The notes under the pieces were generated by a model. It was not told the DNA's origin. It saw only the letters and a program-made list of their open reading frames with translations, and made no database searches. This document shows positions 1-54,383 of a stretch of 64,000 nt of DNA, piece after piece. The stretch is taken from the NCBI GenBank assembly GCA_964347265.1, contig CAYFXV010000003.1, positions 3,001 to 67,000 of the forward strand, given 5' to 3'. A program made the position numbers and the translations under genes. Numbering within the stretch: position 1 is the first letter of the stretch; the number at the start of each line of letters is the position of its first letter. Source of the DNA: an uncultured archaeon (GTDB lineage: Archaea; Aenigmatarchaeota; Aenigmatarchaeia; Aenigmatarchaeales; Aenigmatarchaeaceae).

Positions 1-80
1 TCTGGAGGTTTTATATTCTCATTTTTCTTTAATTCTTCTGAAAGTTTTCCTATAAGCTTTTGTGGAGGAACATCTCTCAT
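1..80 (-). CDS. rps19e: Ribosomal protein S19e, N-terminal part; the gene runs off the window start
   Basis: Minus-strand translation from the ATG at 80-78 gives MRDVPPQKLIGKLSEELKKNENIKPP. This matches the conserved S19e N-terminus (DVP..LI..L.EELK....PEW). The ORF is truncated by the window edge. Confidence 0.5.
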   Translation of the reverse strand, partial: MRDVPPQKLIGKLSEELKKNENIKPP

Positions 81-82
81 AA

Positions 83-277
83 TCATACCTTTCTAATATT
101 GTTTTTATCTTTAAAAATCTTTTGTAACCTATATTTTTCTTTTAATCTTTTTATTAGTTGTCTATATCTATTAGCAAATTCAGGCTTTTTTTCTATCATT
201 TTTTCTAATATTTCTATTCTCTCTAATGCTATTTTCTTTCTCTGGTTTTTTATTCTTTTGAATTTGTCATATTTCAT
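83..277 (-). CDS. Small Lys/Arg-rich hypothetical protein (64 aa). Its first 23 codons are duplicated upstream of the radical SAM gene.
   Basis: Listed in the ORF track. The stop lies 2 nt before the S19e start. No recognisable family. Its 5' end is part of a 72-nt direct repeat. Confidence 0.35.
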   Translation of the reverse strand: MKYDKFKRIKNQRKKIALERIEILEKMIEKKPEFANRYRQLIKRLKEKYRLQKIFKDKNNIRKV

Positions 278-279
278 AT
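208..279. repeat. 72-nt direct repeat copy A (downstream flank of the radical SAM gene). It overlaps the start of ORF 83..277.
   Basis: Positions 208-279 and 1766-1837 are identical except for 3 mismatches (read directly from the sequence). Confidence 0.85.
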
Positions 280-281
280 TA

Positions 282-1712
282 TTACCTGTAAGGATAGAAG
301 CCTTCAGTGAAGATTTTAATCAGACGTTTCATAAAAAGAAATGGATTCTTAGATAAGTTCCATGAAATTATTCTTATGTTATATCCTGTTAATAAAGTGA
401 AAATATCTTTTAAAAAATTTAGTCTTAGCAGCCATTTCTTAGAATGAAGTTTATAACTATAATCTATAAAATTTAAAAGTTCTTTTTCTGAAAAGTTGTT
501 ATAATACTTAGATATGCTATGTGCACTCTTCCAATCATTTTTTCTTATTTTGTTATTGTTTTCTAATTTTGACCATAATTCTGCTCCTGGAACTATTCCT
601 AAGGAATTTATTTGAAGGCCAATATGTAAATCAGTAGCAAATTCAAGTGTTTTTAATATGTCTTCCTTAGATTCAATTGGAGAACCTATAATAAATGAGC
701 CTATTACATTTAGTCTGGCTTTTTTTGCATTTCTAACAGCATTTTTTATCTGTTCAACTGTAATGCCTTTTTTATAATAATCTAAAACCTTTTGTAAACC
801 GCTCTCCATTCCAAAATATATGGTAGAAAATCCTGCTCTCTTCATTTCTTTTAAAACTTCCAACGAGGCTTTATCTACCCTTCCTTCACAATTTAAATTC
901 ATCTTTATTTTTCTCTTTTTTATACCTCTACATATTTTAATTACTCTTTTAGAATTCAAAGTAAAATTATCATCAACAACAATACATGTATCATAACCTT
1001 GAGAATAAATTTCTTCTAACTCATCCAAAATATTTTCCACAGATCTTGTTCTCCATCTTCTCTTAAAGAGAGCAGAACAACAACAAAAAGTGCAATTGTG
1101 TGGACAACCTCTAGATGTTAAGAGTGTGGTAAATTTACCAAAACTGAGTTTCAAACCGAACCAACATTGCGCATAATCAATAGACTTCACAAGGCTTCTG
1201 TCTGGAAACGGCAAAGAATCTAGATCCTCAATGAATTCTATTTTGTTATTTACTATTTTATTTTTATAATAAAAAGCAAGCCCTTTAATATTTTTTAATT
1301 TTTTTCTATTGTGTAAATTATTGATCAGTTTATAAAAAGTGATCTCACCTTCACCTTTAACCACAAAGTCTATAAACTTATAATTTTTTAATATCTTTTC
1401 AGCAAAAAAAGTTGCATGAATACCACCTAACACAATTATAACCTCGGGGAACATTTGTTTTATTTTTTTAAGCAATCTCATAGATCTAAGAAATGTATAA
1501 GAGGTACAGCTTAATCCTATCACATCTGGTTTTTCTTTTTTAATTTGATTCAAAAATTGATTTTCTGTCTCATTAGAGCAGTATGCATCTATAACCTTTA
1601 CTTCATGATTACTTTTTGATTTTAGATAAGAAGCTATGTATAATAAACCGATTGGTGGCCAAGAATAATCCAATGTTTCTCCAATTGGTGGTGTACATAA
1701 AACAATTTTCAT
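282..1712 (-). CDS. B12-binding (class B) radical SAM enzyme
   Basis: The N-terminal B12-binding-like region includes (VIGLSC..., GGIHAT). The radical SAM CxxxCxxC motif is GCPHNCTFCC. Length 476 aa. Confidence 0.8.
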   Translation of the reverse strand: MKIVLCTPPIGETLDYSWPPIGLLYIASYLKSKSNHEVKVIDAYCSNETENQFLNQIKKEKPDVIGLSCTSYTFLRSMRLLKKIKQMFPEVIIVLGGIHATFFAEKILKNYKFIDFVVKGEGEITFYKLINNLHNRKKLKNIKGLAFYYKNKIVNNKIEFIEDLDSLPFPDRSLVKSIDYAQCWFGLKLSFGKFTTLLTSRGCPHNCTFCCCSALFKRRWRTRSVENILDELEEIYSQGYDTCIVVDDNFTLNSKRVIKICRGIKKRKIKMNLNCEGRVDKASLEVLKEMKRAGFSTIYFGMESGLQKVLDYYKKGITVEQIKNAVRNAKKARLNVIGSFIIGSPIESKEDILKTLEFATDLHIGLQINSLGIVPGAELWSKLENNNKIRKNDWKSAHSISKYYNNFSEKELLNFIDYSYKLHSKKWLLRLNFLKDIFTLLTGYNIRIISWNLSKNPFLFMKRLIKIFTEGFYPYR

Positions 1713-1765
1713 TCAAATACCTGTTATAATTTTTGGATATCATCTTTCCACAATACTGCCAGCAT

Positions 1766-1837
1766 ATATTTCTATTCTCTCTAATGCTATTTTCTTTCTT
1801 TGATTTTTTATTCTTTTGAATCTGTCATATTTCATAA
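1766..1837. repeat. 72-nt direct repeat copy B (upstream flank of the radical SAM gene). It encodes a truncated duplicate, MKYDRFKRIKNQRKKIALERIEI..., of the small ORF's N-terminus.
   Basis: Near-identical to 208-279. The minus-strand ATG at 1835 gives a 31-aa ORF ending at about 1740, just before the radical SAM start at 1712. Confidence 0.85.
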
Positions 1838-1867
1838 TATCAATATTTATTTTTAACTATCAAATAG

Positions 1868-3103
<1,236 letters not shown>

Positions 3104-3107
3104 TTTT

Positions 3108-3632
3108 CTAAATACCTCTTATTATTCTTGGGTATCCTTTTTCTACAAGACTATTGCTATATATTCCCAAACTCTCAAAAAATTTTCTGATTTTCTTTCT
3201 TCCGTTTTCAATATGATCAGTTATTACTTCAACTTCTATCCAGTTTCCAAAATCTTTAGGTTGAATAAAAGTATCTACATTAATTTCGAAATCATTTAAA
3301 GTAAAACATTTCCTTATTTTTTCAATTATTAACCATTCATAGAATTTTGATTCTAATAATATTTTTCTTGTTTGCTCTGGATCACTTATCTTTGTTTCAA
3401 ATTCTTTCCAAACACCATCTGTATCTGTTAATTCTTTATAAGTTAATTTATGGTCTTTTTTATCTTCTGATCTTATACGAAGAATAAATTTCTTTTTTGA
3501 ATTTAATGGTTTGAAAATAACATCTTTTTGTTGAACTTCATATTTAAATTTAGAATTCAGTTTTTTGATTTTATTTAAAACAATATTAATATCATCAAGC
3601 TTTGCTCTTAGTTCTACTTCCATAATTATCAC
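3108..3632 (-). CDS. CYTH-domain protein (triphosphate tunnel metalloenzyme / class IV adenylyl cyclase-like)
   Basis: N-terminal MEVELRAKL (ExExK) and C-terminal acidic ExE-like stretches (FEINVD, WIEVEV) typical of CYTH. Length 174 aa. Confidence 0.5.
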   Translation of the reverse strand: MIIMEVELRAKLDDINIVLNKIKKLNSKFKYEVQQKDVIFKPLNSKKKFILRIRSEDKKDHKLTYKELTDTDGVWKEFETKISDPEQTRKILLESKFYEWLIIEKIRKCFTLNDFEINVDTFIQPKDFGNWIEVEVITDHIENGRKKIRKFFESLGIYSNSLVEKGYPRIIRGI

Positions 3633-3637
3633 TAAAG

Positions 3638-3709
3638 TGCGCCGACCGGGATTTGAACCCGGATCGTGAGCTTGGAAGGCTCATGTCCTAACCATTAGAC
3701 TATCGGCGC
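3638..3709 (-). tRNA. tRNA-Gly (anticodon UCC)
   Basis: Reverse complement GCGCCGATAGTCTAATGGTTAGGACATGAGCCTTCCAAGCTCACGATCCGGGTTCAAATCCCGGTCGGCGCA folds as a cloverleaf. The anticodon loop CTTCCAA gives UCC. There is no intron. Confidence 0.8.
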
Positions 3710-3741
3710 ATAAATAGAATTCATTGAAAGAATTTAAAAAG

Positions 3742-4230
3742 TTATAATTTGTACCCTATTTTTCTTAGAAACTCTTTTCTCTCTTCTACATCGTCTTCAG
3801 ATTCTATTCCTTTGGTGTGTTCACCATCTATTACTCCTAATATTCCTCTTCCCTGTGAAGTTTCTGCTAATATTACTTCAACAGGATTGGCTGTCGCACA
3901 AAATATCTTGCAAACTTCTGGAACATTTTTTATTGCATTAAGGACATTTATTGGATAAAATCCTTTTCCTAACACAATTATAAAGGAATGGCCTGCTCCT
4001 AGGTTTAATGCGTTCTTTTCTGCTATTTTCTTTAATTCATTATCTGTTCCAGTACTTCTCACTAAACAAGGACCTGAAGATTCGCAAAAAGCTAAACCAA
4101 ACTTTATTCCTGGAACATTATTAACTAAGGTTTCATGAATATCTTCCACTGTCTTAATGAAATGTGAATGACCTAAAATTATGTTACAGTCTTTTGGAAA
4201 TTTCAATTTTACAGTTTTTGTTTCTATCAT
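3742..4230 (-). CDS. Conserved archaeal protein, possibly the DUF355 / adenosine-specific-kinase family
   Basis: Uninterrupted 162-aa ORF. The family assignment is from memory of the archaeal ~160-aa family and is not motif-proven. Confidence 0.35.
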
Positions 4231-4244
4231 ATTATCACTTTAAA

Positions 4245-4351
4245 TGGGGTCAGGGAGATTCGAACTCCCATTAGCTGGTTTCTTCATTTCATCTTTTTAT
4301 CAAATCTCCATGTCTGGAGCCAGCTGTCGTACCTGGTTGGACCATAACCCC
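4245..4351 (-). tRNA. tRNA-Trp (CCA) with a ~34-nt intron at the canonical 37/38 position
   Basis: Reverse complement: acceptor GGGGTTA/TGACCCC, T-arm GGGAG-TTCGAAT-CTCCC, anticodon stem GCTGG...CCAGC with loop CTCCAG[intron]A. The intron is ACATGGAGATTTGATAAAAAGATGAAATGAAGAA. Confidence 0.75.
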
Positions 4352-17077: not shown

Positions 17078-17199
17078 AGCCTCGAGAGGGATTCGAACCC
17101 TCGACCTACTGCTTACATGCCCTCATTGCGGTAACTCCTTGAGACCAAAAAAATCATTGGGATACAAGGCAGTCGCTCTACCAGCTGAGCTATCGAGGC
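17078..17199 (-). tRNA. tRNA-Thr (UGU) with a 49-nt intron at position 37/38
   Basis: Reverse complement: GCCTCGA acceptor, GCTC-AGCTGGTA-GAGC D-arm, anticodon stem ACTGC/GCAGT with loop CTTGTA[intron]A, T-arm GAGGG-TTCGAAT-CCCTC. Mature length 73 nt. Confidence 0.75.
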
Positions 17200-17919: not shown

Positions 17920-18026
17920 TGTCGGTGGCGGGATTTGAACCCACGACCTCCGGATTTCATATCATCTTTAAATCAAATCTCATAGATTTTATGAGACCGG
18001 CGCTCCAACCACTGAGCTACACCGAC
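17920..18026 (-). tRNA. tRNA-Met, elongator type (CAU), with a ~34-nt intron
   Basis: Reverse complement: GTCGGTG acceptor (G1-C72), D-arm GCTC-AGTGGTTG-GAGC, anticodon stem CCGGT with loop CTCATA[intron]A, T-arm GTGGG-TTCAAAT-CCCGC. The 31:39 pair is mismatched or wobbled. Confidence 0.7.
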
Positions 18027-18065: not shown

Positions 18066-18182
18066 TGGGCCCGGTGGGTCTCGAACCCACGACTTCCAGG
18101 TTTCTTCCTGTCATCGCGAAAGCTCAACATGCTTTTATCAACAGATAAAAGCCTGGCACTCTACCAACTGAGTTACGGGCCC
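18066..18182 (-). tRNA. tRNA-Lys (UUU) with a ~44-nt intron
   Basis: Reverse complement: GGGCCCG acceptor, D-arm ACTC-AGTTGGTA-GAGT, anticodon stem CCAGG/CCTGG with loop CTTTTA[intron]A, T-arm GTGGG-TTCGAGA-CCCAC, discriminator A. Confidence 0.75.
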
Positions 18183-18308: not shown

Positions 18309-18427
18309 TGGTTGCCAACTTTCTGAGCTTCCCATCTTTTCGATAGTACAACCCAGACCGATGAGACGATTCACTACCGTGTTCGAAATGGGAACGGGTC
18401 TTACCATCTCTCTTTGATCGGCAACCA
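18309..18427 (-). rRNA. rrf: 5S ribosomal RNA (stand-alone, not linked to 16S/23S)
   Basis: The reverse complement begins GGTTGCCGATC... and ends ...GTTGGCAACC (helix I). It contains CCCGTTCCCATTTCGAACACGGTAGT, matching the conserved 5S loop B / helix III region. Length about 119 nt. Confidence 0.65.
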
Positions 18428-18873: not shown

Positions 18874-18987
18874 TCCCGACTGAGGGATTCGCACCCTCAA
18901 CCTATCGGTTTCTGAGCAATTGCTGAGTGAGCAATACTATAAAGTAAAACTCTACAGCCGATCGCTCTACTGTTGAGCTAAGTCGGG
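18874..18987 (-). tRNA. tRNA-Tyr (GUA) with a ~42-nt intron and the archaeal/eukaryal C1-G72 identity pair
   Basis: Reverse complement: acceptor CCCGACT/AGTCGGG (C1-G72), D-arm GCTC-AACAGTA-GAGC, anticodon stem ATCGG/CCGAT with loop CTGTA(G)[intron]A(A), T-arm GAGGG-TGCGAAT-CCCTC, discriminator A. Confidence 0.7.
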
Positions 18988-53543: not shown

Positions 53544-54383
53544 ATGGTTAATATTAAAGAAATGATTATTGAAACCCCAATAGATAAACTTATAAGATTA
53601 GTTAAAGAGAGGGAAAAAATAACTTTTAGTGAAGCAGCTGAAGCTCTCGGTGTTAATCAAAAACAAATAGAACAATGGGTAAGAGTTCTAGAAGAACGTG
53701 ATTTCGTAGAATTAAGATATCCAGCAATTGGAGAACCGATTATAGTTCTCAAAAAAATTAAAGAAAAGAAAATAGCTAAGAAAATTGAGAAGGAGAGGGA
53801 AAAAATTGAGAAAAAGACAGAAAAATTTGAAGAAAAAATAATAGAAACTGAAAAGAAAATAGAGGTATCGCACAAGAGTGTCTCCAAATTAGAAAAGGAG
53901 TTGCATAAAAAATTAGAGGGTGTAGAAAAAAATCTTAAATTTTTAGAATCTTTAGAGGGCAAAAAACAGGAAGTGATAAAAGGAACAAAAGAAATAGAAG
54001 ATGTAACAAAAAATGTAACAAAAAGCTTTGAAGAATTAAAATCAAGCGTAGAAAAGATGGACCAACAAATAAATGAAAAAATTAAATTTATAGAAGCTCA
54101 TGAAGACCAAATAAAAAATTTGGAAGAGTTCAGAAATGAAATAAAAGAGGATATAGAAAAGCTGGATGCAGAAATTAAACTAACAAAACTTATTTTAAAA
54201 GGTAAAAAAATGCCTTCTGTAAATCCATTAAAAAGATTATTCGGAAAGCATGGTAAAAAAACTGAAAAAGTGAAAAACAAACATAAAAAACTGCACAAAA
54301 AAGTTTCCAATATGAAAGAAAAAGTAAAAAAGAAGAAAAATAAAGCCAAGAAAAGGTCAAGTATTTATAAGGATTTTTGGTGA
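53544..54383 (+). CDS. wHTH plus long coiled-coil protein with a basic tail, embedded in the pilus locus
   Basis: N-terminal LIRLVKEREKITFSEAAEALGVNQKQIEQWVRVLEERDFVELRYP, then about 150 aa of KE-rich heptads. Confidence 0.5.
   Translation: MVNIKEMIIETPIDKLIRLVKEREKITFSEAAEALGVNQKQIEQWVRVLEERDFVELRYPAIGEPIIVLKKIKEKKIAKKIEKEREKIEKKTEKFEEKIIETEKKIEVSHKSVSKLEKELHKKLEGVEKNLKFLESLEGKKQEVIKGTKEIEDVTKNVTKSFEELKSSVEKMDQQINEKIKFIEAHEDQIKNLEEFRNEIKEDIEKLDAEIKLTKLILKGKKMPSVNPLKRLFGKHGKKTEKVKNKHKKLHKKVSNMKEKVKKKKNKAKKRSSIYKDFW

Follow-up and report, generated by a model that had tools for sequence, protein, structure and literature searches.

A direct repeat around a class-B radical SAM gene in an Aenigmarchaeota genome as a probable recombination scar between two versions of one locus

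The DNA considered here is a stretch of 64,000 nucleotides from an uncultured archaeon of the Aenigmatarchaeota (assembly GCA_964347265.1, contig CAYFXV010000003.1, positions 3,001 to 67,000 of the forward strand), which we call the window. Near its beginning, a gene for a class-B radical S-adenosylmethionine (SAM) protein is bracketed by a direct repeat, each copy of which contains the first 23 codons of a small gene that lies between the radical SAM gene and the gene of ribosomal protein S19e. We propose that this repeat is a recombination scar, which probably arose when two versions of one and the same Aenigmarchaeota locus were joined. Events of this type are ordinary and known; what is new is an instance reconstructed in detail. 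It would provide a base-resolved case of a DPANN archaeon with a compact genome that (re)gains a single metabolic gene without the machinery of a mobile element, and of recombination between divergent versions of one locus, with a chimeric gene stub and a pseudogene relic as its traces. A direct repeat around a gene need not be the footprint of a transposon, nor the leader of a ribosomally synthesized and post-translationally modified peptide (RiPP).

The repeat and its two copies

Repeat finding reports it as one two-copy family, at 208-282 and 1766-1840 (75 nt, 71/75 identical, or 95%). The first-pass annotation had described it as a near-perfect repeat of 72 nt around the radical SAM gene, with three mismatches. 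The two copies are indeed there, but the bases read directly give four differences in 72 nt (208-279 against 1766-1837), at positions 242/1800, 245/1803, 264/1822 and 279/1837; the figure of three holds for the 70 coding nucleotides. The two copies share an identical core of 34 nt (208-241 and 1766-1799). The three open reading frames (ORFs) that had been assigned to this region, of 64 aa, of 31 aa and that of the radical SAM protein, are found as annotated; the last has PF02310 and PF04055 domains. The elements directly concerned are as follows; contigs and loci used for comparison are cited by number (L001 and following).

83..277, minus strand: intact small gene, 64 aa, with an Rpp21/RPR2-like N-terminal two-helix domain and no zinc ribbon (ORF; NCBIfam NF003045; profile against the PDB)
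208..279, no strand: repeat copy A, the ATG and codons 1-23 of the intact small gene, with a weak extension to 282
278..281, minus strand: spacer of 4 nt between the radical SAM stop codon and the small-gene ATG, a native junction (L024-L026 have 2 nt at this place)
282..1712, minus strand: class-B (B12-binding) radical SAM gene, 476 aa, intact (PF02310, PF04055; the CX3CX2C motif is CPHNCTFC)
1713..1769, minus strand: CYTH relic, the last ~18 codons and the stop codon (…IYAGSIVER*YPKIITGI*), which abuts the radical SAM ATG (tblastn, blastn, 41/57 nt)
1740..1835, minus strand: chimeric 31-aa ORF, MKYDRFKRIKNQRKKIALERIEIYAGSIVER, made of 23 small-gene codons and 8 CYTH-relic codons and closed by a GGA>TGA stop
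1766..1770, minus strand: illegitimate junction with a 5-nt microhomology, AATAT (three-way display of copy A, the copy B/relic junction and CYTH)
1766..1837, no strand: repeat copy B, the ATG and 23 small-gene codons, with K5R and two synonymous differences relative to copy A

Each half of the repeat, searched alone with up to 3 mismatches tolerated, matches only the two known sites in the 64-kb window, while 100 shuffles gave an expectation of 0. The repeat is therefore not a dispersed promoter element, a possibility that the first-pass annotation had named as one that would refute its interpretation. A similarity just past the end of the repeat (tatcat motifs) was dropped since it is out of register.

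The junctions are supported by read assemblies. Two Logan assemblies, L002 (from run ERR2564004) and L003 (from run ERR2564001), match the window exactly over 1795..212 and 1795..248, respectively; being independent assemblies of separate runs that both contain the passage from copy B through the spacer into the radical SAM gene and the passage from this gene into copy A, they confirm both. These contigs end where the identical 34-nt core is expected to interrupt a k=31 graph. L003 ends at 248, 36 nt before the repeat-core break point at 212 where L002 stops, which may reflect a polymorphism near the variable sites 242 and 245 in the ERR2564001 sample. The window is also identical over 11.7 kb to contig WVZI01000047.1 of a metagenome-assembled genome (MAG), GCA_011772535.1, which is labelled Candidatus Aenigmarchaeota; the chimeric 31-aa ORF has no gene call in the public MAG.

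The states that distinguish copy B from copy A are not peculiar to this genome. All three are found in other lineages (L030 has the copy B state at each of the three sites), and R5 is the majority state; the 34-nt core is also unchanged in L008-L011. These observations fit two alleles of a highly conserved gene start better than a fresh copy made within the genome.

The CYTH relic and the illegitimate junction

The 57 nt between copy B and the radical SAM gene are the decayed 3' end of a CYTH-domain gene. A tblastn search with residues 141-174 of the window's own CYTH protein (its C-terminal 34 residues) gives a match at 1811..1716 with an E value of 9e-5, and the 57 nt that precede the radical SAM ATG are identical to the end of the window CYTH gene (3164..3108) at 41 of 57 positions, with the stop codon in register and in the frame of copy B. 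No other 57-mer of the window, whichever strand is read, exceeds 34/57, the background being 16.5 +/- 3.5 (z about 7). With blastn, the relic also matches the ends of orthologous CYTH genes in L029 (84%, E 5e-9), L012 (E 2e-7) and L030 (E 2e-7). Read through in the frame of the 31-aa ORF, the region gives ...RIEI/YAGSIVER*YPKIITGI*/ATG, where the ATG is that of the radical SAM gene, and the intact CYTH protein ends in ...SLGI/YSNSLVEKGYPRIIRGI*; a single GGA>TGA change closes the reading frame of the relic.

The position of the relic implies that a CYTH gene formerly preceded the radical SAM gene without a gap, stop codon against start codon. This zero spacing is the same as that seen today between the CYTH gene and the small gene in L012, L029 and L030. 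The relic carries an AGGT motif, similar to a Shine-Dalgarno sequence, 8 nt upstream of the radical SAM start, and the AGGT motif of the small gene lies within the last codons of the radical SAM gene.

At the other end of the relic, codon 23 of the small gene is fused in frame to codon ~157 of a CYTH gene (hereafter CYTH') at AATAT (1770..1766), within a 22-nt patch in which the two parent genes share 14 matches. This fusion is the only novel junction in the whole structure: the other boundaries, between the relic stop and the radical SAM ATG and between the radical SAM stop and the small-gene ATG, are native.

The two duplicated segments have not diverged to the same extent. Copies A and B differ at 3 of 70 nt, the relic and the intact CYTH end at 16 of 57 (Fisher p = 2.6e-4; p = 0.014 without a 6-nt cluster). 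Among themselves, the CYTH ends of the window, L012, L029 and L030 differ by 3-14, and all four are equally far from the relic (15-17 differences in 57 nt); this fits a CYTH allele that may have come from outside the local clade.

Native adjacency and empty site in related loci

Read along the minus strand, the order of the locus is AdoK, tRNA-Gly(TCC), CYTH, purA (on the opposite strand), a 38-nt spacer, copy B with the 31-aa ORF, the radical SAM gene, 4 nt, the 64-aa ORF and S19e. The flanking features are:

1..82, minus strand: 5' part of the S19e gene, start codon 82..80, the gene running off the window (the full gene, PF01090 Ribosomal_S19e, is at 11633-12043 of L001)
1836..1873, no strand: divergent spacer between purA and copy B, 38 nt, homologous over its first ~31 nt to the part of the 102-nt L033 spacer that is nearest to purA
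1874..3103, plus strand: purA, adenylosuccinate synthetase (PF00709, E 8e-150), in the same position and orientation in L033 (62% amino acid identity)
3108..3632, minus strand: intact CYTH-domain gene, the parent family of the relic (PF01928; homologues P0164-P0170)
3637..3709, minus strand: tRNA-Gly(TCC), a conserved left landmark in relatives (ARAGORN, Rfam)
3742..4230, minus strand: adenosine-specific kinase, AdoK (PF04008), a left flank common to L012, L029, L030 and L033

The S19e start codon overlaps the TGA of the small ORF (ATGA), so that the small gene is predicted to be translationally coupled to S19e.

In L024, L025 and L026, the order is HIT, tRNA-Gly, radical SAM gene (68% identity), 2 nt, small gene, S19e and a PDCD5-like gene. 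L023 has HIT, tRNA-Gly, radical SAM gene (69%), Sua5, small gene and S19e. Since the radical SAM and small genes are adjacent in L024-L026, copy A adjoins the radical SAM gene at an old gene junction rather than at the edge of an insertion; the idea that the radical SAM gene is a recent insertion was rejected, as far as this right junction is concerned, after L023-L026 had shown the native adjacency.

The other version of the locus is found in L033, in which AdoK and CYTH are followed by purA on the opposite strand, a 102-nt spacer, a small gene of 55 aa and S19e, with no radical SAM gene. A single blastn high-scoring segment pair aligns window 4285..1843 with L033 7-2472 (72%), and the match restarts with window 265..1 at L033 2550-2815. 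L033 thus lacks the block 1842..266, which includes the coding part of copy B, the spacer and the radical SAM gene; it corresponds to the window minus a block of 1558 nt, and is a true empty site. A comparison with related genomes had been suggested as a check on the repeat, and it gives the predicted result: a single intact small ORF and no radical SAM gene in L033. Other relatives, too, have the small gene without the radical SAM gene, so that the list comprises L005/L006, L007, L008-L011, L012, L015-L018, L029, L030-L032 and L033.

The arrangements at these sites differ. L005/L006 have the order HIT, tRNA-Gly, small gene, and L007 has VIT1 followed by the small gene; in L012, L029 and L030-L032, AdoK is followed, after other elements, by a CYTH gene whose stop codon abuts the small-gene ATG with zero spacing. 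The radical SAM ORF is therefore missing exactly from ATG to ATG in two contexts, namely behind CYTH (L012, L029, L030) and behind tRNA-Gly (L005). The tRNA-Gly gene lies directly upstream of the radical SAM gene in L023 and L024 and of the small gene in L005, and the spacer between tRNA and small gene in L005 resembles the spacer that precedes the radical SAM gene in L023 and L024. Both the radical SAM gene and the small gene start with ATGAAA, and this common start could perhaps mediate repeated precise deletions.

The locus of the window is also a mosaic: its CYTH gene is nearest to that of L029 (85%), which has no purA, while its purA is shared with the distant L033 (CYTH 64%, purA 62%).

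Recombination between two versions of the locus

We propose that two versions of the locus took part in the event. Version X would have the order AdoK, tRNA-Gly and CYTH, then purA on the opposite strand, then the small gene and S19e; this arrangement is extant in L033. Version Y would have had CYTH', the radical SAM gene, the small gene and S19e, all in one direction; it is seen today as halves only, the adjacency of radical SAM and small genes in L024-L026 and the zero spacing between CYTH and the small gene in L012, L029 and L030. In a single illegitimate crossover, codon 23 of the small gene of X would have been joined in frame to codon ~157 of CYTH' of Y at AATAT, and the other end would have been resolved through ordinary homology, within the small gene or downstream of it. 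If DNA passed from Y into X, as we suppose, the start of the small gene is present twice because version Y brought its own intact start right behind the radical SAM gene. The upstream copy B would have stayed beside the promoter-bearing purA spacer and become a 31-aa chimeric stub, while copy A heads the intact gene.

Several routes lead to this outcome: homology-facilitated illegitimate recombination (HFIR) of a linear fragment, Campbell-type integration of a circularised fragment [CYTH'3'-rSAM-small5'] (rSAM, radical SAM gene), or unequal crossover between chromosome copies, and the data do not discriminate between them. HFIR has been described experimentally in bacteria. As at this locus, homology fixes foreign or allelic DNA on one side and a short microhomology makes the junction on the other; the differences are that its occurrence in DPANN would be deduced from sequence only, and that the recipient and the "foreign" DNA are here versions of one locus. 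After Campbell integration, the insert lies between two direct copies of the homologous segment, which is also the case here.

The expression of the genes would have been rearranged along with their order. Since the inverted purA separates the operon of the small gene and S19e from CYTH, the promoter of this operon would have to be among the 38 nt that separate purA from copy B, and 1836..1873 would thus hold the promoter(s) of purA and of the operon small'-rSAM-small-S19e. Transcription through the 31-aa stub, the radical SAM gene, the small gene and S19e would start from a promoter region that formerly served the small gene and S19e. The radical SAM and small genes would each be translated from their AGGT motif, and S19e by coupling through ATGA. 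An exchange between the two copies of the repeat would delete the radical SAM gene; such an excision by homologous recombination had been anticipated from the repeat itself, it is possible in principle, and its product would be the arrangement found in L033.

Several points weigh against this proposal. Among the relatives, no extant genome was found in which CYTH is directly followed by the radical SAM gene, so that the case for version Y is the relic itself. The nearest radical SAM homologue is just 73% identical, and hence no donor lineage can be named. The argument from unequal divergence uses short segments (70 and 57 nt), and gene conversion or selection on copy B gives the same pattern. 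Only the MAG assembly connects the junction with purA and the initial ~40 nt of copy B, the Logan contigs starting at 1795. Last, the promoter was assigned by eye, in a genome of 30% GC.

Alternative explanations

The main rival is a duplication within the genome, with gene conversion. If slippage or unequal exchange at AATAT duplicated the 1558-nt unit [CYTH 3' end - rSAM - small 5' end] in tandem, the result would be exactly the observed junction of small-gene codon 23 with CYTH codon 157. Further steps are then required: the first copy of the radical SAM gene has to be lost or replaced, and gene conversion, which is possible between direct repeats 1.5 kb apart, has to prevent the two small-gene starts from diverging. 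The relic shares Tyr157 and the terminal Ile with the window's own CYTH protein alone, which speaks for an origin within this genome; yet over the whole segment the relic is no nearer to the window CYTH (16/57) than to those of L029, L012 and L030 (15-17/57). A tandem duplication predicts equal ages for the two duplicated segments, whereas 3/70 against 16/57 (p = 2.6e-4) requires added conversion or selection. It also demands that purA has precisely replaced the first radical SAM copy, at the site and in the direction that purA has in L033; since the window and L033 are collinear from AdoK into the spacer between purA and the small gene, the arrangement with CYTH and reverse purA before the small gene must be older. 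We consider this explanation unlikely, although it deserves to be kept in mind.

A partial assembly chimera is less probable still, and we give it little credit. The junction of small gene and CYTH' would then be real, but purA and the 5' part of copy B would have been mislinked, through the 34-nt core, from a strain that co-occurs in the sample. That the Logan contigs begin at 1795, inside copy B, and leave the linkage of purA to the junction uncovered is in line with this idea, and the end of L003 at 248 instead of 212 is a hint of population heterogeneity near the repeat. However, MAG assemblers use k-mers or read pairs longer than 34 nt, copy B has three variants of its own, the contig is collinear for 64 kb, and contigs of 55.9 and 71.5 kb contain this sequence as well. 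Even if the linkage were wrong, the radical SAM gene would still be preceded by part of a second small-gene start joined to a CYTH relic.

The first-pass annotation had envisaged an insertion of the radical SAM gene into the small gene with a long duplication of the target. The empty site that this implies does exist, in L033, but the duplication is better accounted for by the joining of two versions of the locus. As in the case of a transposon or insertion sequence, direct repeats bracket the insert and a relative has the site empty; the radical SAM ORF is cleanly present or absent in several lineages, and its closest homologue (L022, 73%) has GC-rich, foreign flanks. On the contrary, the block between the repeats consists of the radical SAM gene and the CYTH relic, and no transposase, integrase or terminal inverted repeats were found in it. 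Its right end is a native gene junction that is kept in L024-L026, its left end is homologous to a neighbouring chromosomal gene, no relatives were found on viral contigs, and the repeat, which is ~70 nt of coding sequence, occurs nowhere else in the window. To our knowledge, a duplication of 70 nt far exceeds the target-site duplications that are known. Transposition or site-specific integration of a radical SAM cassette, with a 72-nt target-site duplication, is thus very improbable.

The small protein resembles the N-terminal arm of Rpp21

The 64-aa ORF is no orphan but a conserved gene of Aenigmarchaeota: 43 homologues (P0121-P0163) have 38-74 aa, the full-length ones 52-64 aa, and several of them are named "RNase P subunit RPR2" by JGI. 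A scan of genome contigs with an alignment of the small proteins gave 7 loci, among which L012 was the useful one.

The similarity to Rpp21 is distant. The 64-aa protein matches NCBIfam NF003045 (RNase P component 4) with an E value of 1.3e-3, residues 5-52 aligning with positions 6-57 of a profile of 121; its score of 18.8 bits is below the curated cutoff of 162. With Pfam, the small ORF and 19 members of the family gave only sub-threshold noise of the coiled-coil type (Mod_r, MTR4_beta-barrel), and Rpr2 (PF04032) matched 1 of the 19 members, at E 0.14. When a profile of these 19 members is compared with the PDB, the top three matches are all Rpp21: 2k3r (5.7e-4), 1x0t (2e-3) and 6k0a (1.1e-2), from Pyrococcus furiosus (Pfu), P. 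horikoshii and Methanocaldococcus jannaschii. The alignments cover the N-terminal two-helix arm only (residues 5-58 across the three chains), and the invariant residues A17, E19, R20, L24 and Y38 of the small family align with A14, E16, R17, L21 and Y39 of Pfu Rpp21, which are reported to hold the helices together and contact RPP29 (PMC4919917).

The family thus has in common with archaeal RNase P component 4 (Rpp21/RPR2; PF04032, NF003045; 2K3R, 1X0T, 6K0A) the N-terminal two-helix arm and a gene position in a ribosomal-protein neighbourhood. It differs from Rpp21 in its size of just 52-64 aa, in scores far under the curated cutoffs and in the absence of the C-terminal zinc ribbon. In Rpp21, this four-cysteine ribbon is universally conserved and functionally required (PMC4919917); the 64-aa protein and all homologues of 52-64 aa contain no cysteine and end before the ribbon. 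Because the zinc ribbon is absent, we call the small protein Rpp21-like and not a full member of the family. This by-product of the analysis, an Aenigmarchaeota family of Rpp21-like proteins without zinc ribbon, is perhaps more interesting than the repeat.

The radical SAM protein belongs to a widespread archaeal clade

The protein of the bracketed gene belongs to the class-B (B12-binding) radical SAM superfamily: it scores 99.2 bits against a gathering cutoff of 32.1 for PF02310 (B12-binding, residues 10-129) and 102.3 bits against 29.5 for PF04055 (Radical_SAM, residues 199-359). It has the N-terminal B12-binding domain and the radical SAM core with CX3CX2C of BchE, HpnJ, OxsB and TokK, but it differs from the named class-B enzymes in that it stays far under the NCBIfam cutoff of every subfamily scored, in bits: BchE (215 vs 481) and HpnJ (193 vs 578), which match best, HpnR (135 vs 650), ApyD (164 vs 750), the Mcr Gln C-methyltransferase TIGR04014 (139 vs 360), the RiPP C-methyltransferase TIGR03975 (127 vs 282) and the ladderane-type TIGR04072 (118 vs 360). 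A link to enzymes of GDGT or hopanoid synthesis, as considered in the first-pass annotation, finds no support in these scores. The closest PDB matches are generic class-B enzymes, OxsB (1.9e-21), TokK (8e-19), AprD4 and CysS. The archaeal class-B families that act on lipids (GrsA/GrsB, Hgm) and Tes have been described (bioRxiv 10.1101/2023.10.20.563219).

Full-length homologues are 61-73% identical, and a wider family (43-48% identity) is common in MAGs of Thermoplasmata and Methanomassiliicoccales; the protein is therefore best regarded as a member of a widespread, uncharacterised archaeal clade. The window protein is one codon shorter than its homologues (...PYR* versus ...PFRE* or ...PFRQ*). 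A scan of metagenome contigs with this protein gave only proteins of 22-30% identity and was uninformative, and the scan of viral contigs gave no match. The nearest homologue, at 248-1675 of the JGI contig L022 (73% identity), has 40% GC and lies between membrane-protein genes of 51-53% GC, which suggests a transfer of the radical SAM gene into an unrelated organism. The clade, whose gene is gained or lost exactly ORF by ORF beside the small gene, is another by-product that may deserve more interest than the repeat.

The properties of the two proteins bear on the suggestion that the radical SAM enzyme modifies precursor or leader-like peptides encoded by the small Lys/Arg-rich ORF and by its truncated copy. 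Although the small ORF adjoins the class-B radical SAM gene in several genomes and some class-B enzymes are RiPP C-methyltransferases, this idea is hardly tenable and is abandoned, since the comparison with RiPP class-B families leaves the protein far below the ApyD and TIGR03975 cutoffs, the small protein is homologous to the N-terminal helices of Rpp21 with the RPP29-contact residues invariant, and hence of a housekeeping type, the small gene is coupled to S19e through the ATGA overlap and exists without the radical SAM gene in at least seven lineages (L005, L007, L008-11, L012, L029, L030, L033), copy B is the remnant of a gene start, continues as a chimera into a pseudogene relic and has no gene call, and no other RiPP genes were found nearby.

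Variability upstream of the small gene

The core made of the small gene, S19e and the PDCD5-like gene is constant, while the upstream neighbour varies in nearly every lineage (L005, L007, L008, L012, L015-L018, L023, L024, L029, L030, L033): it can be the radical SAM gene, Sua5, tRNA-Gly, VIT1, CYTH, purA, a ~230-aa ORF or others, and the junctions are often exactly at the ATG. Rearrangements thus seem to be concentrated upstream of the small gene, as in a hotspot.

A bolder proposal, which we regard as rather doubtful, is that the conserved first ~70 nt of the Rpp21-like gene and the common ATGAAA anchor a reversible, recombinase-free exchange of single-gene cassettes between Aenigmarchaeota and, independently, that the conserved linkage of the radical SAM gene, the Rpp21-like gene and S19e reflects a class-B enzyme that acts on tRNA, RNase P or the ribosome. 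The radical SAM gene, purA, Sua5, CYTH, HIT, VIT1 and the ~230-aa ORF may be the candidate cassettes at the head of the S19e operon. If such an exchange occurred, the radical SAM gene of the window would have been caught in a metastable, excisable state.

In L008 (4312-4735), and also in L009-L011, a Sua5/YrdC fragment of 117 aa (Sua5 has 190 aa in L023) ends inside the small gene, among its first codons; this gene has lost its ATG in L008-L011, and gene callers begin at Met27 (38 aa). Relative to L023, this looks like a deletion of the radical SAM gene and of the N-terminus of Sua5.

The interval between AdoK and CYTH is variable as well. It contains an ORF for a LAGLIDADG homing endonuclease (245 aa, reverse strand) in L030 (792-1529), L031 (853-1590) and L032 (83-820); this site is that of tRNA-Gly in the window, and a NUDIX gene is found there in L012.

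Other matches in the window

Two further matches in the window, one with the small protein (tblastn, 53583-53813, E 0.003) and one with CYTH (58647-58480, E 5e-4), were rejected as Lys-rich sequences of low complexity. Five tRNA matches are 107-122 nt long (4245-4351, 17078-17199, 17920-18026, 18066-18182 and 18874-18987) and presumably contain introns; four of these five cluster with a 5S rRNA gene at 18310-18425.

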